A program made the position numbers and the translations under genes. Positions 16,571-53,361 of a stretch of DNA of 64,000 nucleotides are shown piece after piece; position 1 is the first letter of the stretch, and each line of letters opens with the position of its first letter. The notes under the pieces are model-generated. The model made no database searches. It saw only the letters and a program-made list of their open reading frames with translations, and was not told the DNA's origin. This stretch comes from Eledone cirrhosa (taxonomy: Eukaryota): positions 2,046,001 to 2,110,000 of the forward strand of contig OZ024740.1 of the NCBI GenBank assembly GCA_964016885.1. Direction: 5' to 3'.

Positions 16571-19500
16571 TCAGTCCAGTGACATTGTCTTGGAAAGGTG
16601 TAAGTGTGTGAAGTCAGAATTTATCAAGTCGTCCCAGGTTTTACTGGGTCTGCCTATTCCGTGGCTACCGTCTATTTTTATGCCCTGCACTTTTTTTATA
16701 CAGCTGTCGTCTTTCATGCGCATCACGTGACCATACCAACGTAGCCTTCTCTCGAGTAAACAACATCTGATCCCTCTTATTTCTAATTTCTCCCTTAGTT
16801 CGTTTATGCTTTGCCGTTCACGTATATTACTATTACACATCCAGCGGAGCGTGCAAGCTTCGTTTCTCTCCAGTCTGCGTATATCCTCTGCACACAATGC
16901 CCATGTCTCACTGCCATGTAACATTGCTGTTCGTATGCAGGCATCATACAGCCTGCCTTTCATTTTTAGAGAGAACCCTTTAGCGGCTAATAGTGGTATA
17001 AGCTCTCTGAACTTTTTCCATCCTGTTCTGACTCTAGCTACTGTACTTTCAGAGCACCCTCCCCCACTGCTGATTTTATCACCCAGGTAACGGAAGCTGT
17101 CCACTATTTCTATAGAACCATCTGTGCAATGGAATGAGTTAGTAATCTGTGGGCACTTGCTGCTACTTATTGCACCAGAGCACCGGCCACATATAAAATC
17201 TATATTCTTAGTTAGCTTACCTGTGATCCCACTACATCTTTTATGTACCCATACTTTGCATTTGGAACATAAAATGGAGTTTCTGCCTACTCCTTTCCTA
17301 CACACTGAGCATGGCCATTTCCCAGATGGGACCGGTGCCCTATTTTCCTTCCTACAAACTAGAACTTTAGTCTTAGACAAGTTAACTTTAAGGCCTTTTG
17401 ATTCTAGGCCATGCTTCCATGTTTGGAATTTCTTCTCTAGTTCAGCCATTGATTCAGCTATGAGCGTTAGATCATCTGCATATAGGAGTTCCCATGGGCA
17501 GCCGGTCTTGAACTCCTCTGTTATAGCCTGAAAGGCAATAATAAATAGTAGGGGGCAAAGGACGGAGCCCTGATGAACACCAACTTTTACGCTAAACTCT
17601 TCACTATATTCGTTGTTAATTCTAACCTTGCTGACTGTTTCTTTATATATGGCTTGTATAGCTCTCACAAGCCATTCATCAACACCTAGTTTTCTAAGGG
17701 CCCACCAGATAATCGAGCGGGGTACTCTGTCAAAGGCTTTCTCCAAGTCAACAAAAGCTAAGTATAGGGGTTTACCTTTAGCTAGGTACGTCTCCTGTAG
17801 TTGTCGTACAATGAAAAGAGCGTCTGTGGTACTTTTTCCTGACACAAACCCGAACTGCATTTCATCTAGATCAATTCTCTCTCTGATTAGTTGCGCTATT
17901 ACTTTTTCTGTGACCTTCATGATCTGGTCGATTAATTTAATGCCTCTATAGTTACCCCTATCTAGGGCATCATCTTTACCCTTGTAGCAGTTAATGATGT
18001 TGCTGCTGCGCCAGTCCTTCGGAACGGCCCCATTCTGTACGACTTGGTTTACTATCCGGGTGACCATAGTGTGTCCCACCGTTCCAGATGCTTTCAGCAT
18101 TTCGGCAACTATTTCCGAAGGCCCGGCCGCCTTGCCCGTCTTCATGTCTTTGATTGCCTTACTTATTATACTACCTTCAACTTGCACTGCTGGTCCCTCT
18201 ATTGGGTCAATGTGGGGGAGACTGTCTTTCTCCCAATTATTCTCCTCATTTAGAAGCCTTTCGTAGTGACACTTCCAAGCTACCTTCTTATCAGCGTCAG
18301 TGATGGCAAGTACACCATCATCATTTAGGACACACTTCTCCCCGACAATATCACTGTTTTCCTTGACACATTGCCTAGCAATCCTGAACACCTCATGTTT
18401 TTGGTCCTCGCGTTGTAGAACATGCTTGAACTTTCTTTCCTCTGCTTCCCTTCTTGCAAAGTACACTTGTCTCCTAGCTTCCCTCCTGGCCACTTGATAG
18501 TCTTCTCTACTTCCCCCATCCCACCATGCTTTCCAAGCCTGCTTTTTGGCCTTGATTGACCTCTCCACCTTACTGTTCCACCACCAAGTTACTCTCCTCC
18601 TGCCTATAGGCCTGCTCCAGCCACAGGTTTCATCTGTCGCCTTCAGCAGGTTAGCTTTCAGGAATTCCCACTGTTCCTCTATAGTGTACGACTCTAATTG
18701 CTCTTCCTTAATATCAAAAGCATCAAGTAATATGCTTTTAAACTTATGACTGGCTGTGGGGTCCTTTAATTTCCATATTTTTCTCCTGAGGATAGTCCTC
18801 TTCTGTTGTCGAATACGTCTCGTCCTGACTATGAGGTCACTAATTATGAGTCTATGTTGAGACGTGCATTCTTCATGGGGGAGGGATTTAGTGTTTACAA
18901 CAGATACTCTGTCACGTCTCCTGGTAAGGATATAATCTACCTGGCTTGTGTGTTCCCCCGATCTATAGGTGATCAAGTGATTGTCTCGTTTTTTGAAGTT
19001 AGTGTTACAGATAGTTAAGTTATTTGCGTCGCAGAATTCCAGGATTCTGGAGCCTTCCTCATTTCTAGTACCAAACCCATAGCCTCCGTGGATTCCGTCA
19101 TAGCCGTCACAATGTTGTCCAACGTGACCATTTAGGTCGCCTGCAATAACTATATAGTCACTGTCGGTTATTTGGGAGGTAGCGAGCATCAGTGTCTCAT
19201 AGAAACTGTCTTTTATAGCGCCGGGCAGTCCGGATTGGGGTGCGTACGCAGATATTACTGTCACAGTAGTTCTATTGAGGACAAGTCTTATTTTAATTAT
19301 TCTGTCGTTCACTCTATTTACGTCTATTATCTTATCTGCCCACTTTTCTGCTACCATGATTCCTACCCCACCCAGCCCATTGTCATTTCCCACCCAGAAA
19401 AGCTTATAGCATCGTTCTTTACCCACGATGAATTTAGCCGACCCACCCCTCCACCTGGTCTCTTGGATACAACAAACATCGACCTCCTTACGTTCAAGCA

Positions 19501-19638
19501 TCTCTAGAACCTCGTTAGAGCGACCCTTTAAGGTGTCTACATTCATGGTACCAACTCTGAAGTTTTGGATTGCGTTTGGAGGGTGGGAGCGGTGGGGCGC
19601 GCGGCGGGGGGGGGGGGGGGGGGGGGGTATGTTAGCCA
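16571..19638 (-). CDS. RTE ORF: APE endonuclease + reverse transcriptase with inserted PHD-like finger
   Basis: APE motifs GTMNV, IQET, AGDLNGH, SQVDYI. RT motifs [32 protein letters not shown]. Premature stop (CGA>TGA) about 14 aa before the usual end. Start taken at MANIPP. Confidence 0.92.
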
Positions 19639-19700
19639 TCCGCGGCCGAAACAAAGAGGAGGAGTCCTCGCATTCTCGTCCATGAGCTGAATTTGTCTTT

Positions 19701-20043
19701 AGGCACATGGTTTAGTGGTTCGAGCATTGGCCTTGCAATCGAAAGGTTGTGAGTTCAATTCTCAGACCGAGTGATGTGTTGTTTCCTTGAGCAAGACACT
19801 TTATTTCACATTGTTCCAGTTTACTCAGCTGTAGAAATGAGATGATAGGGACTGGGGTCCATATCATTCCACTGCAAAGTGGTCGTGGAGGTGCCACGGC
19901 AAAAAAGCACCCAGCACTCACTGTAAATGAGGTTGGTGTTAGGAAGGGCATCCAGCTGTAGAAATCAAGCCAGCATCAGTTTCCGTCCCACCCTTGCAAG
20001 CAGGGAAAAAGCGGACGTAAAATGAAATGATGATGATGAATGA
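19701..20043 (+). mobile_element. tRNA-CORE SINE with RTE family-B 3' tail
   Basis: A box tggtttagtgg, B box gagttcaattct, CORE ccttgagcaagacacttt. The tail matches 46278-46420 and ends in (gat)n. Confidence 0.88.
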
Positions 20044-20404
20044 TTTGGCATTGTCACTGAGCGTCCAGATTTTTCTTTTCAACTCTCCAGAATTCCGTAG
20101 TCCATCCATCATATCGAAAGGCAACCAGGTAAGCGATAACATAGGCCTCTGACTTATGATTGGTCCACGTAATAATGGTGGTGCGTGCGGGTGGGTGGGA
20201 TTGATATTGGGTAGTTAGCGAGAAGGTTATGGTTTAAATAAGATCCCCGTATTTTGGGCATAATTTAACAAGCATAAAACAATAATACAAGATTTGTTTT
20301 GGAAAATACGCTAGAGTATCGAGTAGAAAGCAAGGATTGGATTCGGGGAAAAATGATAGAGAATGACGAATGGACTAAGGAATTAAAATGGTGAGAAGAG
20401 TGAA

Positions 20405-21003
20405 GAAATATTTGTACCTTACATTAAACCATGAAAGAAGCATCTGGAATAGGAATTGGCGAATATGATTTTCCTACTTGTAGGATTTATTTTATATATG
20501 TAGAGAGAGAGAGAGGGGGGGGGGGATTTGCGGCGAACCAGCATGATGTTGGTGGGGGTGAAGATAGGGGGGAGCAGAGGTTAAGAGTTTAAATACATAT
20601 ATCCTAATTATTTAAATTCTGCATAGCATCTAAAATAACGTTTTTTCAGCCCAATACCTCAACCTCATTTACATACTCATCTTAATAATTTGAAATATCT
20701 TACTTTTCTCTTCTCTATCCAAGGAAAACTTGAACCGTTAAGGTATGTCAAAATTTATAAAATTGGTTATATAATTGGTTATGTCAAAATTTATAAAACA
20801 AACTTTGTATTTTATCTGATGAAAGCGTACTAAAGTTTTGGTACCCTTGAAATATATATAATAGAATAAATAGGGTTTTATAAATATAGTTTCCATTTAT
20901 ATAATATCATTGAATATTATACTCCAGAAAACTGTCGAGTGCTCTGAATCAGTTATAAACATTTATATTTGTTGAATTACCAACAAATTGAATATCCCTT
21001 CTG
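20405..21003 (+). mobile_element. Degenerate Penelope-like 3' end / pLTR
   Basis: Remnant FKYIYPNYLN (like ..P.GLN at GIY-YIG ends), hammerhead motif and AATAAA. The segment 20910-20990 resembles 1205-1290. Confidence 0.55.
20812..20864 (+). ncRNA. Type I hammerhead ribozyme motif
   Basis: UUAU-CUGAUGA-AAG c GUACUAA..UUGGUAC c CUU-GAA-AUAUAUAU-A-AUAG, immediately followed by AATAAA. Confidence 0.65.
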
Positions 21004-21029
21004 CTATATATATGTATATATATATATAT

Positions 21030-24000
21030 CCCACTCTCCCAACTTCAGAGTTGGTACCATGAACGTAGGCACATTGAAAGGTCGCTCAAATGAGGTTGTA
21101 GAGATGCTTGAACGTAAAGAAGTTGATGTTTGTTGTATTCAAGAGACTAGGTGGAGAGGTGGGTCTGCCAGATTCATCGTGGGTAAAAAACGATGCTATA
21201 AACTTTTCTGGGTGGGAAATGACAATGGACAGGGTAGTGTAGGAATTATGTTAGCTGAAAAATGGGTAGATAAGGTAATTGATGTAAATAGAGTGAATGA
21301 CAGAATAATTAAAATAAGACTAGTTCTAAATAGAACTACTGTGACAATAATATCCGCTTATGCACCCCAATATGGTCTACCTGACGTTATAAAGGACAGG
21401 TTCTATGAGACGCTAATGCACACTAGCTCCCAAATAACTGACAGCGACTACCTAATTATTGCTGGTGATCTAAACGGCCACGTTGGACAACATAGTGATG
21501 GCTATGATGGAATCCATGGAGGGTATGGGGTTGGAAATAGAAATGAGGAAGGCTTCAAGAATCCTGGAATTCTGTGACACCAATAACCTGTCACACAAAC
21601 TTCAAAAAACGTGAAAGCCACTTGATCACCGATAGATCAGGGGAACACACCAGCCAGATAGATTATATCCTTACTAGAAGACGGGACAAAGTGTTTGTTG
21701 TAAACACTAAATCCATCCCCCGTGAAGAATGCACCTCCCAACATAGCCTAGTAGTAAGTGACCTCACAGTCAGAAATAGACGTACTCGACGACAGAGGAG
21801 GCCTACCTTGAGGAGAAGAATATGGAAGTTGAAGGACCCCATAGCTAGTGACAAATTTAAAAGCTTATTACTTGATGCCTTTGACAATAAGGAAGAGCAA
21901 TTAGAGACGTGCGATATAGAGGAACAGTGGCAATTCTTGAAAGTGAACCTGCTGAAAGCAACGGATGAAATCTGTTGCTGGAGCAGACCTATTGGCAGGA
22001 GGAGAGTAACTTGGTGGTGGAACAGTAAGGTGGAAGAGACAATCAAGGCCAAAAAGCAGGCTTAGAAAGTATGGCAGGATGGGGGAAGTAGAGAGCACTA
22101 TCAAGTGGCTAGGAGAGAAGCTAGGAGGCAAGTGTACCTTGCAAAAAGGGAAGCAGAGGAAAGAAAGTTCAAGCATGTTCTACAACGTGAAGACCAAAAA
22201 CGCGAGGTGTTCAGGATTGCTAGACAATGTGTCAAGGAAAACCGTGATATTGTCAGAGAGAAGAGTGTCCGTAATGATAACGGTGTACTTGCCCTCACTG
22301 ATACTGGTAAGAAGGTAGCTTGGCAGTGTCACTACGAGAGACTATTAAATGAGGAGAATAAGTGGGAAAAAGATAGTCTGCCCCAAATCGATCCAATAGA
22401 AGGACCAGCAGAGCAAGTTAAAGGTAGTATAATAAGTAAGGCAATCAAAGATATGAAGACAGGCAAGGCGGCTGGGCCTTCGGAGATAGTTGCTGAGATG
22501 TTGAAGGCATCTGTAATGGTGGGACATACTATGGTCACCAGTATAGTTAACCAAGTAATACAGAATGGGGTCGTACCAAAAGACTGGCGTGGCAGCATCA
22601 TCATTAACTGCTACAAGGGTAAAGGAGATGCTCTCGATAGAGGAAACTATAGAGGCATTAAGTATAGAGGAAACTATAGAGGCATTAAGCATGAAGGTCA
22701 CAGAAAGAGTAATAGCGCAACTAATCAGAGAGCGAATTGATCTAGATAAAATGCAGTTCGGGTTTGTGTCAGGTGAAAGTACCACAGATGCTCTTTTCCT
22801 TGTACGAGAACTACAGGACAAGTACCTAGCTAAAAGTAAACCCCTCTACTTAGCTTTTGTAGACCTGGAAAAAGCCTTTGACAGAGTCCCCCGCTCCATT
22901 ATCTGGTAGGCTCTTAGAAAACTAGGTGTAGATGAATGGCTTGTGAGAGCTATACAAGCTATATATAAAGAAACAGTCAGCAAGGTTAGAATTAACAATG
23001 AATATAGTGAAGAGTTTAGCGTAAAAGTTGGTGTCCATCAGGGCTCTGTTCTTAGCCCCCTACTATTTATTATTGCCCTTCAGGCTATAACAGAGGAGTT
23101 CAAGACCTGCTGCCCATGGGAACTTCTATACGCAGATGATCTAACGCTCATAGCTGAATCAATGGCCGAGCTAGAGAAGTATTTCCAAACATGGAAGCAT
23201 GGCCTAGAATCAAAAGACCTTAAAGTTAACTTGTCTAAGACTAAAGTCCTAGTTTGTAGGAAGGAAAATAAGGCGCCGGTCCCTTCCGGGAAATGGCCAT
23301 GCTCAGTGTGTAGGAAAGGAGTAGGCAGAAATTCCATTTTATGTCCCAAATGCAAAGTATAGGTACATAAAAGATGTAGTGGGATCACAGGTAAACTATC
23401 TAAGAACGTAGACTTTATATGTGGCTGATGCTCAGGTGCAATAGGTAGCAAGTGTCCACAGGATACTAGCCCCTTCTATTGCCCAGATGGTTCTATAGAA
23501 ATATTAGACACTTTCCGTTACCTGGGTGACGAAATCAGCAGTGGTAGAGGGTGTTCTTAAAGTACAGTAGCCAGAGTCAGAACGGGATGGAAAAAATTCA
23601 GAGCTTATACCACTGTTGGCCGCTAAAGGTTTCTCTCTAAAAATGAAAGGCAGACTGTATGATGCCTGCATACGAACAGCAATGTGACATGGCAGTGAGA
23701 CCTGGGCATTGTGTGCAGAGGACCTGCGTAGACTGGAGAGGAACGAAGCTTGCATGCCCCGTTGGATGTGTAATAGTAATATACGTGAACGGCAAAGCAT
23801 AAATGAACTAAGTGAGAAATTAGGAATAAGAGGGATCAGATGCTGTTTACTCGAGAGAAGACTACGTTGGTATGGACACGTGATGCGCATGAAAGACGAC
23901 AGCTGTATAAAAAAAGTGCAGGGCAATAAAAATAGACGGTAGCCACGGAGTAGGTAGACCCAGAAAAACCTGGGACGATCTGATAAATTCCGACCTCACA

Positions 24001-38152: not shown

Positions 38153-40855
38153 TTAATTGTAAGTTGTGATGTTGCTGTTCCACTCATATTTTCTATTTAA
38201 TTTTGGTTGTAATTCTTTTATGTTTATTGCCTCTGTAATTTGTCTAAACATTGCATCTTTTCTGTGTGTAGATTCTATTTTTATTTCTATGTTCTCTAAT
38301 TTACCCTTGTGTTCTATCTTAGCATGTTGGTAGAGTACAGATGATTCTTTATTATCTTGAAGGTCTCGCCAGTGTTCATTTATCCGTTCCCCTATACTAC
38401 GAGCTGTCTCACCTATGTACACTATATTTTTGTTTCTACATTGTCCTTCAGTACATCTTATGCTATACACTACATTTCTAGTTTTACAGTTAATATGGGG
38501 GCTTATTTTACAGGTTATACATTTCTTATCTATACATGAGGGTCTTTGAAACGGGTATGTCTTGCTAATAAGTGTTTTTACGGAGGTACCTGGTCTTTCT
38601 ACTATCTTAATATTGAGTTTATGCTTATTTAGGGCCCTTCTAAATTTGTAGGCTAGTTCGCCTCTAGGGGTTGTATCGATGAACATTACACTCTGGTATT
38701 TATTGCTATCATACCATGAGTTTATTCTATTGGCCTTGTTCCTAGTTCTTTCTACTCTATTCCAAGATTTGCTCCTATACAAGGGGCAGGTCCCATTTAT
38801 GTCATTATTTACCATTTTTTCCCATTTGGTTCTGGCTCCTCTATACACTCTGATTCTATCTCTCTGATTGTAGCCAGAGAACTGCATACGGTGGATGAAG
38901 TGTTGTATGTGTCTCTCTAGTTCTTCGGGGTTGCACATGCGGGACACATTTCTCATCACCCGTACCAAATCCGCAATCAGTATGTTGATTTTGGTATGGT
39001 CCGAAATGGCCGAGTTTCGGTGGATCAGATGTTTGGAAGTCATGGGTTTGGCATAATGGGAATGGAGGATTTGTTTTTGGTTGTTAATGGTATCTAAGCA
39101 GAGCTCTGTGTCTAGTACAGGTAATCGATGGTTGGGGTGTCTACTTGGGTAGTCTATAGTAACTCTAATGCTCTGGTGGATGGAGTTTGCTATTTGCTGG
39201 ATGCTTTCCATTGTGTTTTTCTCTAGTTCCTGACTGTTCTCTAGTGGGGGTGTCTTAACTACGATGTTTATATCATCTACGTAGCGGGAGTACATTATCA
39301 GGCTTAAGCTGTCTTCTAATTGTTCTTTAAGTTTAAGTCTACTGTCCCACCATACCATGAATAAGTTAGCTATGTCGCCTGCAATGCTAACACCAATGGC
39401 TGCTCCTTCCTCTTGGGCATATGTTTTTCCATTAAATTTGAACATATGTTCCTTAAGGGTTAATTTTATGCTGGCCCCTACCGCATGTGCAATCATTTTC
39501 TTCAGTTCATCGTGGTTTTCGGGTGTCCGTATGGCTCTGGTCCACCCGTTCCATCTATCTGTGTGGGTTTTCTTGGCCATTGAGGTAATGGTAGGTGGTC
39601 TGCCTCTTGCTGGTCTTGTAGGGCACAGGTTGCTAAGGTCATAAGAGTCTAGGTAACTATTACTATGGGTAAGCTTAAGTAGAAGTCCCAGCTCACTGGT
39701 ATCAATCCCACGGAACTCAACCTTGCTCTCGCTGATCATTTCGACGCATTTCTCCACAGCAAAATCCACGTCAATAGATGGATACAGGGACACAACATCC
39801 ATACTGCCTATTATGCAGTTTGTTAGGTCCCCAGATCGGTTACCCGCGCCGATTCTGCTGAGGAGGTCCTCCGTGCTGTCACACACATCTGGGGACATCT
39901 CAATGATGGGGCGTATGATCAGGGAGAGGAAGTAGGACAGTCTGTAGTTACTAGCAATGTTAGCCCCACAGACTGGTCGTGTTGGTGGTCCCGCGACAGG
40001 GTCCCAGCCCGTTTTATGGTCTTTACGAAGCCCATACAACGCCGGCACGTCATTGTTCCAGGCCTGGAAGTTGTTGGCAGTCCTTTTGTTGGGCTGCATT
40101 ATATTTGTCCACATCACCATATGGGCATTGAGGGTTTTTTCTCTATCCTCATGCTCCTGTGGTGTTACCTCTCTTGTGTTAGTGATGTGGGGTTGCATTG
40201 CCTGGATGTAGTTTGGCAGGCTGTCAACCGACATTCTGCCAGACTTGTCTGTTGGAAAGCATGCTATCTCTCCATTACGCGAGCGCTGCATGAGCTTACG
40301 CAAGCCATTTGCAGATTCTTCTCCCAGTTGCTGGGCCTCTATTCTATTATGCTTCTTGCTATACTGTTCTATAATATTTCTAAGTTCGGATTTAGCTATA
40401 CTAAATTGTGCCTCTGTTTGTTCATCGACCTGCGACGGCAACTGCGTGCGTTTGTTAAATGGCAAAGTCGTGGCGTGGACTCGTCGTAGGTCGAATGATT
40501 TATCAGAGGGGTTATAAAACGGAGAGTTCCAGGCTGCTGCTTTATGTGTACTAGTGCTATTGTTAGTTGTGTTGTTTCTATTTCCACCAACAGCAGCAGC
40601 CTCAGCTTCATGGTTGTTTCTATGTCTCTCATAATTACTCCTGTCTCTTTCCACTGGCTCAATGTTGTTATCTACCCTATTTTGTGTGTCTGTGTGTTCG
40701 TCTTGGTTATTCTCTTTGTCCTTAGTCTCCCATCTCCTTTTCCTTTTCCTTTTAATCCTATTACTTTCTCTTATTTCTCTGATTTCTGTGCTACTGTCAT
40801 TACTTGTTTTCTGTGTCTGTGTGTTTGTTAAGATTGTGGTGGTGGTGAGAGGCAT
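38153..40855 (-). CDS. Penelope-like RT + Cys linker + GIY-YIG endonuclease
   Basis: TDKSG, RPVCG, SMDVVSLYPSI, QEEGAAIG, RYVDD, LPVLD; linker CxxxxCxxC; NVVYSIRC...VYIGETAR...RINEH...EAINI...LN. Confidence 0.92.
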   Translation of the reverse strand: MPLTTTTILTNTQTQKTSNDSSTEIREIRESNRIKRKRKRRWETKDKENNQDEHTDTQNRVDNNIEPVERDRSNYERHRNNHEAEAAAVGGNRNNTTNNSTSTHKAAAWNSPFYNPSDKSFDLRRVHATTLPFNKRTQLPSQVDEQTEAQFSIAKSELRNIIEQYSKKHNRIEAQQLGEESANGLRKLMQRSRNGEIACFPTDKSGRMSVDSLPNYIQAMQPHITNTREVTPQEHEDREKTLNAHMVMWTNIMQPNKRTANNFQAWNNDVPALYGLRKDHKTGWDPVAGPPTRPVCGANIASNYRLSYFLSLIIRPIIEMSPDVCDSTEDLLSRIGAGNRSGDLTNCIIGSMDVVSLYPSIDVDFAVEKCVEMISESKVEFRGIDTSELGLLLKLTHSNSYLDSYDLSNLCPTRPARGRPPTITSMAKKTHTDRWNGWTRAIRTPENHDELKKMIAHAVGASIKLTLKEHMFKFNGKTYAQEEGAAIGVSIAGDIANLFMVWWDSRLKLKEQLEDSLSLIMYSRYVDDINIVVKTPPLENSQELEKNTMESIQQIANSIHQSIRVTIDYPSRHPNHRLPVLDTELCLDTINNQKQILHSHYAKPMTSKHLIHRNSAISDHTKINILIADLVRVMRNVSRMCNPEELERHIQHFIHRMQFSGYNQRDRIRVYRGARTKWEKMVNNDINGTCPLYRSKSWNRVERTRNKANRINSWYDSNKYQSVMFIDTTPRGELAYKFRRALNKHKLNIKIVERPGTSVKTLISKTYPFQRPSCIDKKCITCKISPHINCKTRNVVYSIRCTEGQCRNKNIVYIGETARSIGERINEHWRDLQDNKESSVLYQHAKIEHKGKLENIEIKIESTHRKDAMFRQITEAINIKELQPKLNRKYEWNSNITTYN

Positions 40856-41904
40856 TGAATGCGTGTGTGTTGTTGTTGATGTGTGTTGTTGTTGTCTCCG
40901 TGTGTGTGTGTGTTATCGTTGTTGTGAGTGTTGTTATTGTTGTTTGTGTTTGCGTGTCTGTTGTTGTATCTGGGTATGTTGCTATTGTTGTTGTTGATGT
41001 GTGTGTTGTTATTATTGTCTCCGTGTGTGTTGTTATTGTTGTTTGTGTCTGCGTGTCTGTTGTATCTGGGTATGTTGCTATTGTTGTTGTTATTGTTGTT
41101 TGTGTCTGTGTGTCTGTTGTTGTTGGGATGTGTGTTGTATATGTGTGTGCGTATATTGTTGCTTTTGTTTTTGATGCTCCAGCGTAGTTTCGTAAATGAT
41201 TTTTCTATTTCTGACAGACAACTAATCATATTTACCTTCTGGAATGTCGCAAATTTGGGTGGCAGACGTAACACCGACATTTCATTATTATCTATTTCCG
41301 TGTTTCCATAAATGTTGGTATTTTCATTGTTGAACTCTTCAGATAATGAGGTGTCGGCCATGTTGATACCGTCAATTTTGTCGGGATATCTATTGGTATA
41401 CTCTATAGTATCCCGATTTAGCTTTGCCTGTTTAAGCCACTTTAATTTTCTGTTAAAGTGCTTATTACATTCTTGAGTAATGTACTGTTCTTCGGGGCGT
41501 ATAAGGCTTATAAATGTTAGTTTTTCTGCTGGTGTGGTGATTTTAGATATTTCATCTATTAGGTTACGCTTTAGTTTTTCTTGATGACTTAATTCTCTAT
41601 AGATCTTCTTTTTTATGTTTAGAATTAAAGTTCGTTTTAGCCTATCTGCTTGTTTTTTGGTGAGTTGTAATCTTCTAACGTCGGTATTGATGGTGTTGGT
41701 GTAGATTCTAGAAGTGGTGCACAGTTTTATGAAGTGTAGTTGTCGAGATGTTATGGTTTTTCGTAGACAACAGAACATGGTGGTTTTCAGTATCTTGTTA
41801 GCCTGGCTAAGGCTTACGATATTTCGTTTCTGAATTTGTTTAGCAAGATTCTTTATCTGAAATCGTGTGTTGAAACCGATATTGTTATACTTTGGGAGGG
41901 TCAT
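40828..41904 (-). CDS. N-terminal part of the Penelope-like ORF, frameshifted from the RT part in a low-complexity tract
   Basis: LRLPPKFA...EIEKSFTKLRW is the typical PLE N-terminal motif. First ATG at MTLPKY. Confidence 0.75.
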   Translation of the reverse strand: MTLPKYNNIGFNTRFQIKNLAKQIQKRNIVSLSQANKILKTTMFCCLRKTITSRQLHFIKLCTTSRIYTNTINTDVRRLQLTKKQADRLKRTLILNIKKKIYRELSHQEKLKRNLIDEISKITTPAEKLTFISLIRPEEQYITQECNKHFNRKLKWLKQAKLNRDTIEYTNRYPDKIDGINMADTSLSEEFNNENTNIYGNTEIDNNEMSVLRLPPKFATFQKVNMISCLSEIEKSFTKLRWSIKNKSNNIRTHIYNTHPNNNRHTDTNNNNNNNSNIPRYNRHADTNNNNNTHGDNNNNTHINNNNSNIPRYNNRHANTNNNNNTHNNDNTHTHGDNNNTHQQQHTRIQCLSPPPQS

Positions 41905-44154
41905 GTTGCCAATAAGAAACACACGCACCAGTTGCTTTCACTTCAATTTAATTTATTAAATATTTATAAATTTACAAATTTATAAATCTCTGGCCGGCCG
42001 GCCGGCCCCACAACCAGACAGCTGCCTATATATATATAGTCACAGTTCTTTCGCCACACACCCCGTGACCCCCTCAGCGACTGGGGACCTCCCTCTTCGC
42101 CTCTGTGCCCCTCTTTCCTCCATCCCACGCCATTCTGTTTGTGTGTGGGTTGCGTGCTCAGTTTGCGCATGCGCCACATCCGGGTGTCTGTGTGTGTTTG
42201 TGTTCATTTTTCTATTTTTCTATTTATATTTTTCTATTTGTTTGTTTATTTATTTATTGTTGGTTGGTTGTTTGTTCTATGTGTGTGTGTGCTTTCATTT
42301 TGTCTTGTGTGTGTTTTCATTTTGTGTGTGTTTTCAATTGTAAGTTGTTTGTTCTATGTGTGTGTGTGTTTTCATTTTGTCCTTAATTGTAAATTGTGAT
42401 GTTGCTGTTCCACTCATATTTTCTATTTAATTTTGGTTTTAATTCTTTTATGCTTACTGCCTCTGTAATTTGCCTAAACATTGCGTCTTTCTTGTGTGTG
42501 GATTCTATTTTTATTTCTATGCTCTCTAATTTACCCCTGTGTTCTATCTTAGCATGTTGGTAGAGCACAGATGATTCTTTACTATCTTGGAGGTCTCGCC
42601 AGTGTTCATTTATTCGTTCCCCTATACTACGAGCTGTCTCACCTATGTACACTACATTTTTGTTTCTACATTGTCCTTCAGTACATCTTATGCTATATAC
42701 TACATTTCTAGTTTTACAATTAATATGGGGGCTTATTTTACAGGTTATACATTTCTTATCTATACATGAGGGTCTTTGGAACGGGTATGTCTTGCTAATA
42801 AGTGTTTTTACGGAGGTACCAGGTCTTTCTACTATCTTAATATTGAGATTATGTTTCTTTAGGGCCCTTCTAAATTTGTAGGCTAGTTCGCCTCTAGGGG
42901 TTGTATTGATGAACATTACACTCTGGTATTTATTGCTATCATACCATGAGTTTATTGATGAACATTACACTCTGGTATTTATTGCTATCATACCATGAGT
43001 TTATTCTATTGGCCTTGTTCTTAGTTCTTTCTATTCTATTTAGTAACCCTAAAGAAACATAATCTCAATATTAAGATAGTAGAAAGACCTGGTACCTCCG
43101 TAAAAACACTTATTAGCAAGACATACCCGTTCCAAAGACCCTCATGTATAGATAAGAAATGTATAACCTGTAAAATAAGCCCCCATATTAACTGTAAAAC
43201 TAGAAATGTAGTATATAGCATAAGATGTACTGAAGGACAATGTAGAAACAAAAATGTAGTGTACATAGGTGAGACAGCTCGTAGTATAGGGGAACGAATA
43301 AATGAACACTGGCGAGACCTCCAAGATAGTAAAGAATCATCTGTGCTCTACCAACATGCTAAGATAGAACACAGGGGTAAATTAGAGAGCATAGAAATAA
43401 AAATAGAATCCACACACAAGAAAGACGCAATGTTTAGGCAAATTACAGAGGCAGTAAGCATAAAAGAATTAAAACCAAAATTAAATAGAAAATATGAGTG
43501 GAACAGCAACATCACAACTTACAATTAAGGACAAAATGAAAACACACACACACATAGAACAAACAACTTACAATTGAAAACACACACAAAATGAAAACAC
43601 ACACAAGACAAAATGAAAACACACACACACACATAGAACAAACAACCAACCAACAATAAATAAATAAATAAACAAACAAATAGAAAAATATAAATAGAAA
43701 AATGAACACAAACACACACAGACACCCGGATGTGGCGCATGCGCAAACTGAGCACGCAACCCACACACAAACAGAATGGCGTGGGATGGAGGAAAGGAGG
43801 GGCACAGAGGCGAAGAGGGAGGTCCCCAGTCGCTGAGGGGGTCACGGGGTGTGTGGCGAAAGAACTGTGACTATATATATATAGGCAGCTGTCTGGTTGT
43901 GGGGCCGGCCGGCCGGCCAGAGATTTATAAATTTGTAAATTTATAAATATTTAATAAATTAAATTGAAGTGAAAGCAACTGGTGCGTGTGTTTCTTATTG
44001 GCAACATGACCCTCCCAAAGTATAACAATATCGGTTTCAACACACGATTTCAGATAAAGAATCTTGCTAAACAAATTCAGAAACGAAATATATATATATA
44101 CTTATATATATATATATATATATATATACTTATATATATATATATATATATATA

Positions 44155-44384
44155 TACTTAGTATACTAAGTATATATAGTATACTTAGTATATATAGTAT
44201 ACTTAGTATATATAGTATACTTAGTATATATAGTATACTAAGTATATATAGTATACTAAGTATATATAGTATACTAAGTATATATAGTATACTAAGTATA
44301 TATAGTATACTAAGTATATATAGTATACTAAGTATATATAGTATACTAAGTATATATAGTATACTTAGTATACTAAGTATACTT
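44155..44384. repeat. 18-bp AT-rich tandem repeat (gtatatatagtatact[a/t]a)n
   Basis: About 12 units, each containing the palindrome AGTATACT. Confidence 0.9.
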
Positions 44385-46509
44385 AGCTAGGAGGGAAGCA
44401 GAGGATAGAAAATTCAAGCATGTTTTACAACGTGAGGACCAGAAACAGGAGGTATTCAAGATTGCGAGGCAGTGTGTCAGAGATAGTTGTGATGTCATTG
44501 GAGAGAAGTGTATCCGGAATGATAAAGGTGAGCTTGCCCTCACAAGTGCTGAGAAGAAAGATGCATGGAAGAGTCATTATGATAGATTACTAAATGAGGA
44601 GAATGCATGGGAAGAAGAGACCCTACCCCACGTAGACCCTATAGAAGGACCAGCAGTACAAGTCAGCGGCAGCGTAGTAAGTAAGGCAATCAGAGATATG
44701 AAGATAGGGAAGGCAACCGGTCCATCGGGTATAGCTGCCGAGATGCTGAAGGCATCTGGTCTGTAGGTCACACTATAACCACACGTATCGTTAACCAGGT
44801 AATACTAGAGGGGGCCATACCAAAAGATTGGTGCAGTAGCATCATTGTCAACTGCTACAAAGGTAAAGGCGATGCACTAGATAGAGGAAACTATAGAGGT
44901 ATAAAGTTGATGGACCAGGTCATGAAAGTAACAGAAAGAGTTATAGCACAGCTGATTAGGGACCGGGTGAATATAGACGAGATGCAATTTGGGTTTGTAC
45001 CAGGGAAAGGCACCACTGATGCCCTCTTCCTTGTGAGGCAATTACAGGAAAAGTACCTAGCTAAAAGTAAGCCACTCTACTTGGCATTTGTCGACCTTGA
45101 GAAAGCCTTTGACAGAGTTCCACGTGCAGTAATCTGGTGGGCTCTTAGAAAACTAGGAGTAGATGAATGGCTTGTGAAAGCGGTACAAGCCATGTATAGG
45201 GGAGCAGTCAGCAAAGTTAGGATTGGCAATGAGTATAGCGAGGAATTTAGCGTACAGGTTGGGGTCCACCAGGGCTCTGTTCTTAGCCCTCTCCTGTTCA
45301 TCATAGTCCTGCAGGCAATAACGGAGGAGTTTAAGACCGGATGCCCATGGAACTCCTGTATGCCTCAAAGTCAACATGACAAAGACTAAGGTCCTTATAA
45401 GTAGACGAGAAAACAGAACCCAGATCCCCTCAGGGAAATGGCCTTGCTCAGTATGTAGGAAAGGTGTAGGTAGGAACTCCATTCTCTGCCCCAAATGCAA
45501 ACAATGGGTACACAAGAGATGTAGCGGGATCTCAGGAAGCTTAATTAAGAATGTAGGATTCACATGCAGCAGCTGTGCTGAAACAGCAAGCAAACAGCCA
45601 CAGGAAACAAGTACCACCAATCTCTGGGAGGGCCCTGTAGAAACAGTAGACAGCTTCTGCTACCTAGGTGACCGAATTAGCAACGGAGGTGGGTGCTCAG
45701 AAAGTACAATAACTAGGGTAAGAACGGGATGGAAGAAGTTTAGGGAACTACTACCACTGCTAGCTGCAAAAGGCTTCTCCCTCAGAATGAAAGGCAGACT
45801 GTATGATGCGTGTATCCGAACAGCGATGTTGCATGGTAGTGAGACCTGGGCGCTGAAGGTGGAAGACTTACGTAGATTAGAGAGAAACGAAGCCTGCATG
45901 CTCCGATGGATGTGTAACAGTAATATACGTGAACGACAAAGCATAAAGGAATTGAGAGAGAGACTGAGCATAAGAGGAATCAAATGGTGCGTGCAGGAGA
46001 GGCAGTTACGCTGGTATGGACATGTGATGCGTATGAAGGATGACAGCTGCATAAAAAGGTGCAGAGCACTAGAAGTTGATGGAAACCGCAGAGTGGGGAG
46101 ACCCAAGATGACTTGGGATGAGGTGATAAAAGCCGACCTTACCCAACTACACCTCTCAAAGTCAATGACACACGACCGTGACTTCTGGCGTCACGCAGTA
46201 ATACAGGGTACCCGACCTCCCATGGGTACATGCTGAAGCATATAAACAATATGCCCCCCCCCCCCCCCCACCGGAAGGTGGTCGTGGAGGTGCCACGGCA
46301 AAAAAGCACCCAGCCCACACTGTAAAGTGGACGTGTAGGCGCCACGAAAAAGCACCCAGCACTCACTGTAAATGAGGTTGGTGTTAGGAAGGGCATCCAG
46401 CTGTAGAAATCAAGCCAGATCAGTTCCTGTATGAGCAAGGCATGGTCAGCCGACCAGACACTGCCCACAACAGGACAACCCGTCTAACCCATGCTAGCGT
46501 GGAAGAACG
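44385..46509 (+). mobile_element. 5'-truncated RTE LINE (family B) with deletion of the YADD region, running into the gap
   Basis: ORFs 44907-45389 and 45376-46236 are homologous to but clearly diverged from family A, with a distinct 3' UTR. Confidence 0.92.
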
Positions 46510-50457: not shown

Positions 50458-53361
50458 GGTTTAGCGTCCGTGTTCCACACTTGCATGGGTTTGGACGGGG
50501 GTTTTCCCACTTGAGGCAAGAGTGGTTGTCTTGCTCGCATAGGACTGTCTGGCGGGTTTTCTACAGTTGGATGCCCTTCCTAACACCAACCACATTTACA
50601 GTGTGGGGCTGGGAGGTTTTTACCGTGTTGCCTACACGGCCACATTGCAGCGTGGACTGTCTGGCGGGTTTTCTACAGCTGGATGCCCTTCCTAACACCA
50701 ACCACATTTACAGTGTGGGGCTGGGAGGTTTTTATCGTGTTGCCTACACGGCCACATTTACAGCGTGGACTGTGTGTTTTTTTGTCGTGACACCTACACG
50801 ATCTCATTTGTTTCGGCCTGGATGTTGTGGGACCAACATAACTTTACATTGAAAAGGGCGGTGTGGATGGGGTGGAGGTGGTGGGACGGGGGGGTGTTTT
50901 GATAGAGATGCCTACTGACTGTAGTAGGTTTTTACTTTGTATTTAGGTAAGGCGGGTCTTCTCTATTACTGAGTACCGCCAAAGGTCTCGGTCCAGTGAC
51001 ATTGTCTTGGAGAGATGTAAGCGTGTGAGGTCGGAATTTATCAGCTCGTCCCATGTTTTTCTGGGTCTGCCTACTCCGTGGCTACCGTCTATCTTTATTG
51101 CCCTGCACTTTGTTATACAGCTGTCGTCTTTCATGCGCATCACGTGACCGTACCAACGTAGCCTTCTCTCGAGTAAACAACATCTGATCCCTCTTATTTC
51201 TAATTTTTTCCTTAGTTCGTTTATGCTTTGCCGTTCACGTATATTACTATTGCACATCCAGCGGAGCATGCAAGCTTCGTTCCTCTCTAGTCTGCGTATA
51301 TCCTCTGCACACAATGCCCAGGTCTCACTGCCATGCAGCATTGCTGTTCGTATGCAGGCATCGTATAACCTGCCTTTCATTTTTAGGGAGAACCCTCTAG
51401 CGGCTAATAGTGGTATAAGCTCTCTGAACTTTTTCCATCCAGTTCTGACTCTAGCTACTGTACTTTCAGAGCACCCTCCCCCACTGCTGATTTTGTCACC
51501 CAGGTAACGGAAGCTGTCCACTATTTCTATAGAACCCTCTGTGCAGTTGAAGGAGCTAGTATTTTGTGGGCACTTGCTGCTACTTATTGCACCAGAGCAC
51601 CGGCCACATGTAAAATCTATGTTCTTAGTTAGCTTACCTGTGATCCCACTACATCTTTTATGCACCCATACTTTGCATTTGGGACATAAAGTGGAGTTTC
51701 TACCTACGCCTTTCCTACACACTGAGCATGGCCATTTCCCAGATGGGACTGCCGCCTTATTTTCTTTCCTACAAACTAGAACTTTAGTCTTAGCCAGGTT
51801 AATTTTAAGGCCTTTTGATTCTAGGCCGTGCTTCCATGTTTGGAATTTCTTCTCTAGTTCGGTCATTGATTCAGCTATGAGCGTTAGATCATCTGCGTAT
51901 AGGAGTTCCCATGGGCAGCCGGTCTTGAACTCCTCCGTTATAGCCTGAAGGGCAATAATAAATAGTAGGGGGCTAAGAACAGAGCCCTGATGGACACCAA
52001 CTTTTACGCTAAACTCTTCACTATATTCGTTGTTAATTCTAACCTTACTGACTGTTTCTTTATACATGGCTTGTATAGCTCTCACAAGCCATTCGTCAAC
52101 ACCTAGTTTTCTAAGAGACCACGAGATAATGGAACGGGGGACTCTGTCGAAGGCTTTCTCCAAGTCGACGAAAGCTAAGTATAGGGGTTTACTTTTAGCT
52201 AGGTACTTCTCCTGTAGTTGTCGTACAATGAAAAGAGCGTCTGTGGTACTTTTGCCTGACACAAATCCGAACTGCATTTCATCTAGATCAATTCTCTCTC
52301 TGATTAGTTGCGCTATTACTTTTTCCGTGACCTTCATGACCTGGTCGATTAATTTAATGCCTCTATAGTTACTCCTATCTAGGGCATCTCCTTTTCCCTT
52401 ATAGCAGTTAACGATGATGCTGCTACGCCAGTCCTTCGGAACAACCCCATTCTGTACGACTTGGTTAACTATCCGGGTGACCATGGTGTGTCCCACCGAA
52501 CCAGATGCCTTCAGCATCTCAGCAACTATTTCCGAAGGACCAGCCGCCTTACCCGTCTTCATATCTTTGATTGCCTTGCTTATTGTACTACCCTGGACTA
52601 ACACTGCTGGTCCCTCTATTGGGTCGATGTGGGGGAGACTGTCTTTCTCCCATTTGTTCTCCTCATTTAGAAGCCTTTCGTAGTGACACTTCCAAGCTAC
52701 CTTCTTATCAGCGTCGGTGATGGCAAGTATGCCATCATCGTTAAGTACACACTTCTCCCCGACAATATCACGGTTTTCCTTGACACATTGCCTGGCAATC
52801 CTGAACACCTCACGTTTTTGGTCCTCACGTTGTAGAACATGCTTGAACTTTCTTTCCTCTGCTTCCCTTCTTGCGAAGTACACTTGTCTCCTAGCTTCCC
52901 TCCTGGCCACTTGATAGTCTTCTCTACTTCCCCCATCCCGCCATGCTTTCCAAGCCTGCTTTTTGGCCTTAATTGACTCCTCCACCTTACTGTTCCACCA
53001 CCATGTTACTCTCCTCCTACCTACAGGCCTGCTCCAGCCACAGACTTCGTCTGCCACCGTCAGCAGGTTTGCTCTCAGGAATTCCCACTGTTCCTCTTAT
53101 ATTATATGACTCTAATTGCTCTTCCTTACTGTCGAAAGCGTCAAGTAATATGCTTTGAAATTTATTTCTGGCTATGGGGTCCTTTAGCTTCCATATTTTT
53201 CTCCTGAGGATAGTCCTCTTCCGCTGTCTAGTACGTCTCGTCCTGACTATGAGGTCGCTAATTATCAGTCTATGTTGGGAGGTGAATTCTTCATGGGGGA
53301 GGGATTTAGTGTTAACAACAGACACTCTGTCACGTCTTCTGGTAAGGATATAATCTACCTG
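50427..53361 (-). mobile_element. 5'-truncated RTE LINE (family A) with 704-aa open RT region
   Basis: ORF 50943-53057, (GAT)n tail, and a 112-bp UTR duplication at 50542-50766. Confidence 0.95.

Follow-up and report, generated by a model that had tools for sequence, protein, structure and literature searches.

Endonuclease-bearing Penelope-like elements (PLEs) have been described with pseudo-LTRs, an inverted arm and a tail in one common arrangement, and the available text of the same paper calls the origin of their tandem and inverted structures undefined (PMC8557442). A minimal hammerhead motif is defined in PMC4209133, and in the available portions of PMC4209133, PMC8557442 and PMC11167929, all on PLEs, editing is unmentioned. 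Bursts of deamination are described in other systems. According to the accessible part of the review PMC8586724, ADAR-linked A>G hyperediting is found in RAV-1, avian leukosis virus, and in HTLV-2/STLV-3 in culture. Hyper-editing by ADAR is very high in octopus, and the available text of PMC5625713 gives the depletion of G at the 5' neighbour as a shared mark, with invertebrates preferring 3' A and showing a weak 3' G.

The window analysed here is a stretch of 64,000 nucleotides from Eledone cirrhosa (contig OZ024740.1, positions 2,046,001 to 2,110,000), and one PLE insertion within it carries a dense tract of A>G changes. Our reading, held with high confidence, is that RNA hyper-edited by ADAR was reverse-transcribed into the germ line, the RNA editing being deduced from DNA. 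In the comparison with the sources available in part, the case shares with ADAR-edited retroviruses the clustered plus-strand A>G in a reverse-transcribed element, attributed to ADAR acting on RNA; unlike the retroviruses, it is endogenous, non-viral and chromosomally fixed, is present in other samples and extends to at least 23 insertions (PMC8586724). With APOBEC-edited LTR elements it shares strand-biased deaminase bursts in genomic copies, polarised against the family majority (PMC4866542, PMC2873906); however, those are G>A changes from cytidine deamination of cDNA in vertebrate LTR elements, whereas here they are A>G and linked to a duplex, and the APOBEC screen of PMC4866542 filtered for G>A over A>G. 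Dense clusters and 5' G depletion are also common to the hyper-editing of repeat-derived dsRNA, which in PMC5625713 concerns transient RNA, whereas in the PLE it is found in DNA. In the open-access literature, we found no description of endogenous retrotransposon copies with fixed ADAR bursts, and ADAR is unmentioned in the available main text of a retrozyme preprint (10.64898/2026.07.22.740005).

The element and its hammerhead

The A>G tract lies in the pseudo-LTR of a Penelope-like retrotransposon. The order of the insertion is TA repeat, pseudo-LTR A (37733-38160), ORF, tandem unit B, inverted arm C with a 60-base tail, and TA repeat. The features are given below in window positions; the TA repeats and hammerheads were read from the sequence, copy A was placed by sequence comparison and the switch zone by diagnostic sites.

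37530..37732, no strand: TA-rich microsatellite, left end of the insertion
37733..38160, minus strand: copy A, the downstream pseudo-LTR, unedited, subfamily 1
37894..37938, minus strand: intact minimal hammerhead motif of copy A (helix I, CUGAAGA, helix II, GAAA)
38153..40912, minus strand: 919-aa frame with reverse transcriptase and C-terminal GIY-YIG endonuclease, CX4CxxC linker motif before GIY-YIG
39428..39644, no strand: switch zone from subfamily 2 to subfamily 1, inside the reverse transcriptase coding region
40828..41904, minus strand: upstream open frame with its ATG at 41904, in another frame than the reverse transcriptase-endonuclease frame
41819..43040, minus strand: copy B, a 5'-truncated tandem unit (endonuclease end, 3' UTR, hammerhead) continuing into the ORF
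41988..42135, minus strand: A>G tract of copy B, the upstream pseudo-LTR; G replaces 32 of its 65 A and nothing else differs
42038..42082, minus strand: minimal hammerhead of copy B, in which the core CUGAAGA reads CUGAGGG, predicted inactive
43026..44091, plus strand: copy C, an inverted 5'-truncated arm ending in the 60-base tail (about 44031-44091)
43774..43922, plus strand: the A>G tract of copy B as it recurs in copy C, its inverted twin, with coordinates mirrored from B
44092..44385, no strand: TA-rich repeat, right end of the insertion

Pseudo-LTRs in partial tandem, an inverted 5'-truncated arm and a one-sided tail are all present in the window element. Within the available text of PMC4209133, PMC8557442 and PMC11167929, it has in common with endonuclease-bearing PLEs the reverse transcriptase with C-terminal GIY-YIG, the partial tandem and the inverted 5'-truncated arm, and with PLEs also the tail at one end, the TA-repeat target and the hammerhead in the pseudo-LTR. 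Two features set it apart from the PLEs described there, namely a tail of about 60 bases versus 30-40, and the split between the reverse transcriptase frame and the upstream frame. The window element has two frames, and in one other copy that was checked there is likewise only a 902-aa reverse transcriptase-endonuclease ORF from its ATG. The 919-aa frame matches RVT_1 (Pfam) weakly, under the cut-off (E 9e-4), and the GIY-YIG match, scored on the twin piece 43025-43525, is above the cut-off (E 3e-5). The linker reads CIDKKCITC in the translation and has the CX2-5CxxC form that, before the endonuclease, marks Neptune/Nematis; the CX4CxxC linker, as reported for these elements in the available part of PMC8557442, points to the Neptune/Nematis clade. 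An AAC/ACAC-rich stretch lies at 40828-41150, where the upstream frame and the reverse transcriptase frame fail to join, and a tandem duplication of about 47 bases is present at 42910-43003, near the inversion junction. Elsewhere in the window, several copies of an apurinic-endonuclease LINE are found at 17161-23450, 28990-30930, 31560-32250, 33570-37237, 44377-46236 and 51578-53097, some of them split by long TA repeats.

The hammerhead core and helices I and II were read from the sequence and folded (the fold was made on the subfamily-2 motif), and the hammerhead of copy B, with CUGAGGG, folds differently. The tract covers this motif, which the preliminary description had not noticed; the A>G changes break the ribozyme core of copy B and are predicted to leave it inactive. 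An Rfam search of the window returned no hammerhead match at E up to 5 and only microsatellite-driven matches to miRNAs.

The A>G tract, its direction and its presence in reads

The preliminary description had counted, on the plus strand, about 34 T>C, 2 C>T and 1 G>A between 37841-38020 and 41981-42160, and our recount of this alignment came close to it, with 32 T>C, 2 C>T and 1 G>A, in addition to two transversions (1 T>A and 1 T>G). The flanks, described there as nearly identical, are about 96% alike, because copy A, used for the comparison, belongs to another subfamily. We therefore refer to a parent state for copy B defined as the majority of 42 unedited copies of the same subfamily, with changes given on the sense strand of the element; relative to this parent, 32 of 65 A in 41988-42135 have become G and the tract differs in nothing else. 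Outside its tract, copy B is without edits, and over 1,083 bases aligned with its closest copy (L063), there are 32 A>G, 2 T/C, 1 transversion and no change in the reverse direction. At a background rate of 3 in 930, the chance that at least 30 of 62 A columns are changed is about 7e-58. Together with the comparison to the parent, this indicates that G is derived, that the insertion is young and that the change was a single burst. The edits of copy B that were scored are all found in copy C (30/30), which in the twin region (about 43774-43922) is identical to copy B except for one extra base.

The direction of the change can be judged at the level of the family. The genome has 8,635 matches to a 35-base form of the hammerhead motif in which each A may also be G, and among the first 100 listed, 96 are all-A, four are multi-G (two of these being copies B and C) and none is single-G. 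All 42 parents have A at most of the tract sites, and at least 41 of the 42 have it at every site. Copy A has many relatives at 99%, and the next best match of copy B, among 40 scored candidates, is at 90%. Since the family majority is all-A and the hammerhead core is intact in the A form, the A state is evidently ancestral and the G state derived. The A-to-G direction proposed in the preliminary description is borne out on both grounds, the consensus being the A form. The alternative named there was G>A deamination of cDNA in the other copy. In this converse view, the G-rich sequence would be the ancestor or a separate subfamily, and the A-rich copies would have undergone G>A deamination in an APOBEC-like manner. 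In vertebrates, LTR elements are known to be edited in this way (PMC4866542), but the motif counts and the parents contradict it for this locus, no other locus carries the pattern of copy B among the 40 candidates, the G form disrupts the hammerhead core, and the available text of PMC4866542 reports no such editing in 19 invertebrate genomes. Sense-strand G>A against the family majority, by which APOBEC-edited retroelements are recognised, was not found here, and we consider this explanation extremely improbable.

The G-rich form was also looked for in genomic reads. Over 42031-42066, raw reads with at least 99% identity reach a depth of 41, 32 and 14 in the three raw-read runs (3/3), with no other letters listed across these positions. 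These are Illumina RAD-seq reads from three samples of one study, possibly kin of the assembled animal, and among the edited loci the check covered that of the window. In a fourth run, available as contigs (99% identity), there is no cover at 41995-42138, and assembled contigs of three runs at 92% identity did not span the tract. An artefact of assembly or base calling might be suspected, as systematic mismatch clusters from sequencing error are known (accessible text of PMC2873906) and the contigs of two runs with the element failed to span the tract; against this, raw reads from all three other samples match it at 99% or more, and the two arms agree base for base, so that the probability of an artefact is negligible. 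The exact G-rich form is inherited DNA and no assembly error.

Recurrence in the family and the neighbour signature

When a hot-spot A was fixed as G in the search, 46 copies were matched and 26 of them carried 2-10 G. In the mirror search, with one T fixed as C, a second T>C change was present in only one of 45 copies, and at the best antisense site, more T>C changes were seen in two of 11, one being an edited hairpin (L282, see below). With one G fixed as A, none of the 100 matches listed (of 207) had more than three G>A, and these were mostly a shared subfamily variant. This G>A subfamily, recognised by two changes in helix II of the hammerhead and its loop, accounts for most of those 100.

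Clusters of A>G are present in 23 of 273 compared copies and clusters of T>C, G>A and C>T in none (0/273 each), in a set that is enriched for A>G by design, but to which the T>C search and the G>A search also contributed 30 loci each. This strict set omits 27 borderline copies; a looser rule gives 17 insertions among the 54 copies with the hot-spot G. The counts are those obtained with the majority parent; the nearest-parent method, which picked a poor parent for copy B (20 A>G there), found 21 such copies out of 273 instead of 23. Two apparent G>A clusters in the nearest-parent analysis came from edited copies used as parents, and disappeared with majority or unedited parents. A second search, excluding the hot spot, found 7-26 A>G in seven of seven held-out arms and added six insertions. 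By these comparisons, at least 23 insertions bear A>G bursts, versus a T>C burst in a single arm, an asymmetry between the strands in line with the preliminary description. The clusters consist of dense A>G only, on the transcribed strand, sense-strand transcription being deduced from the ORF. Two copies are edited over about 1 kb including the endonuclease, with 136 A>G in L146 (G000:C1:42,796,000-42,797,900) and 101 in L062 (G000:C22:15,915,100-15,917,200).

Because the edit patterns differ between the 12 insertions compared (Jaccard 0.05-0.44), they represent separate editing events. No sign that an edited copy had spread to a second generation was seen among these 12, whose highest overlap is 0.44. 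The pattern, neighbour and looser-rule analyses were run with simple-repeat columns (reference 601-765) and the TA tail masked. The copies with the GG of the second search comprise 11 with the hot-spot G (hand count) and seven without it, from which we estimate that roughly 0.4-0.5% of the family is edited.

The neighbours of the edited sites were compared next to those left unchanged. In 14 pooled insertions, A was edited after G in 59/275 cases, after A in 227/543, after T in 95/248 and after C in 73/292 (p 1.5e-6), and before G in 132/278 versus about 0.3 (p 5e-8); both pooled p-values are optimistic, as the same positions are reused across insertions. In the six held-out insertions, the depletion after 5' G repeats (11/65, p 0.012) and the enrichment before 3' G does not (19/53, p 0.32). 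The window copy alone has no significant bias (5' G 5/15, p 0.23; 3' G 8/14, p 0.55). Of the neighbour bias expected in the preliminary description, the 5' G depletion is thus found at the level of the family, but the 3' G enrichment is flat in the held-out set and the window copy by itself is non-significant. Since a preference for 3' A in invertebrates is reported in the available text of PMC5625713, and this is unmatched in the PLE copies, where 3' G is enriched in the main set and flat in the held-out one, the 3' result is ambiguous for the assignment to ADAR. Exons of adenosine-deaminase domains, which may be of ADAR, ADAD or ADAT1 type, are found at four places of the genome. The central proposal of the preliminary description, an ADAR-type A>G change on the sense strand written back by reverse transcription, is supported by the polarity, the strand, the 5' neighbour bias of the family and the reads. 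Direction, strand, recurrence with different patterns and presence in genomic reads are direct observations.

Duplex, templates and the insertion process

In nine of nine strict two-armed insertions, the arms share nearly all edits (e.g., 30/30, 91/91, 79 of 81 and 83). In L065/L066 (G000:C3:328,617,000-328,623,400), the inverted arm and both pseudo-LTRs around the ORF share about 11 A>G, some of which may be subfamily marks, and this suggests that one RNA was copied three times, by a jump or a circle. In L260/L261 (G000:C2:324,749,800-324,763,100), the arms share 26 edits and face each other across about 9.6 kb of other DNA, possibly an insertion-linked inversion. The simplest reading of these sequences, and probably the right one, is that one RNA or cDNA was used more than once per insertion.

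Copies B and C carry identical edits on opposite genomic strands, and for this reason their pairing with each other is not the cause of the edits; the arms of the window insertion were not the edited duplex, which belonged to a source RNA. A different situation is seen in L282 (1229-1760; G000:C15, about 40,036,230-40,036,760), an inverted insertion whose two arms have their A>G on one and the same genomic strand: the sense arm has 17 A>G, and the antisense arm has 15 changes that read as T>C in element sense. Its edits lie only in the paired part, with none in the unpaired 5' part or the tail, and it looks like the whole edited hairpin transcript of an inverted insertion, copied and re-inserted. 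No other arms of this kind were found in the antisense-site and looser-rule searches. The earlier suggestion that the inverted pseudo-LTRs of the element supply the dsRNA therefore fails for the window insertion and has support elsewhere, in L282. The loop of editing and retrotransposition suggested along with it has its support in this one whole edited hairpin, and no edited pattern is common to the 12 compared insertions.

A change of the DNA after insertion, in which adenines of a hairpin, cruciform or RNA:DNA hybrid were deaminated and gene conversion carried the result from arm to arm, would also account for the single genomic strand affected in L282, and B and C are near-perfect inverted arms. 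Gene conversion occurs between palindrome arms, and ADAR acts on RNA:DNA hybrids. However, in nine of nine pairs nearly every edit recurs in the other arm on the opposite genomic strand, the arms of one pair being 10 kb apart, the direct-repeat pseudo-LTR 4 kb away in L065/L066 shares edits too, and B and C still differ at 3 substitutions and several repeat lengths. Moreover, such damage should strike either strand of the element, and T>C bursts are seen in one arm versus at least 23 insertions with A>G. We consider this route improbable, with a small chance left to it, and only slightly smaller is the one we leave to misincorporation by the reverse transcriptase or an error-prone polymerase. 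Misincorporation would be strand-specific and insertion-linked, and the preference for 5' A/T also fits WA-type errors; the routes would be G placed opposite T at low dATP in second-strand synthesis, or polymerase eta at WA motifs. Yet 49% of A are changed with no other error and with sharp tract ends, the edits of L282 are in the paired part only and in both arms, and identical errors in two arms need fixation before the duplication.

Returning to editing of RNA, the partner strand has to be considered. The edits of L282 are confined to its paired part, as expected of dsRNA; in copy B, there is the coincidence of a boundary, as its tract starts at reference 826 and 26 of 106 family copies begin at reference 801-840. 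Within the DNA examined, 48 of 106 copies have an inverted partner. Given that the commonest 5' end of family copies lies at the tract edge and that such partners are frequent, the strand paired with copy B's source RNA was likely an antisense transcript of a short inverted arm, acting in cis or in trans. The 5' ends of family copies cluster just upstream of the hammerhead (26/106) and also at reference 711 (8/106). Over the final 85 bases of the pseudo-LTR, 11 insertions show almost no editing (2 of 241), and two held-out copies are edited there; the unedited end counts against a full antisense arm, which would pair there, and shielding by the protein of the element or a partner starting near reference 1000 are ideas to explain it. 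A self-contained hairpin was rejected as the substrate, as folding of the sense pseudo-LTR gave only short stems.

As for the template, the edits extend across the predicted hammerhead cleavage site, for which reason the simplest assumption is an RNA template that was uncut or re-joined. Unprocessed RNA is given as the main substrate in the available text of PMC11167929. When 18 long copies were compared, the window element matched subfamily 2 at 11 of 11 diagnostic sites down to 39644 and subfamily 1 at 38 of 38 from 39428, a single clean switch. By its diagnostic sites, the window element is evidently a subfamily chimera, made either by template switch or by later DNA recombination. The view that one insertion joins unedited and edited templates is retained in so far as two templates are joined at 39428-39644, but the 37841-38020 segment that served as the unedited version is of the other subfamily.

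In the proposed mechanism, an antisense transcript of a short inverted arm would pair with the RNA of the element along some 150 bases around the hammerhead, ADAR would deaminate the double-stranded part, about half of its A being converted, and the RNA of the element would stay uncut at the hammerhead of copy B. The reverse transcriptase of the element would then copy the inosines as G into germ-line DNA. Arms B and C would have identical edits because the edited RNA, or its cDNA, served twice in the insertion. The 1.7-1.9 kb downstream would derive from another template, unedited and of subfamily 1, either through a template switch or through recombination at a later time.

For the family as a whole, we lean towards a joint reading in which PLEs are a standing route that makes ADAR edits heritable DNA, the edits barcoding single RNAs; the inverted arm and both pseudo-LTRs arise by two or three rounds of copying of one RNA or cDNA, with the hammerhead uncleaved; and whole edited hairpin transcripts are occasionally re-inserted, and templates of different subfamilies are joined in a single event. 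The scale is small, at about half a percent of copies, and the spread of an edited copy was not seen among the 12 compared insertions. The tract would be a germ-line record of RNA editing, in which a usually transient change becomes an inherited burst of mutations, and it would imply that ADAR works on transposon RNA in the germ cells or the early embryo. Through the edits, a new copy would lose its ribozyme and encode an altered protein, which may be a route of restriction analogous to that of APOBEC in vertebrates. Shared edits tell which parts of an insertion came from one molecule, and in this way the formation of the tandem and inverted ends of PLEs, undefined in the available text of PMC8557442, becomes testable from genomes alone.
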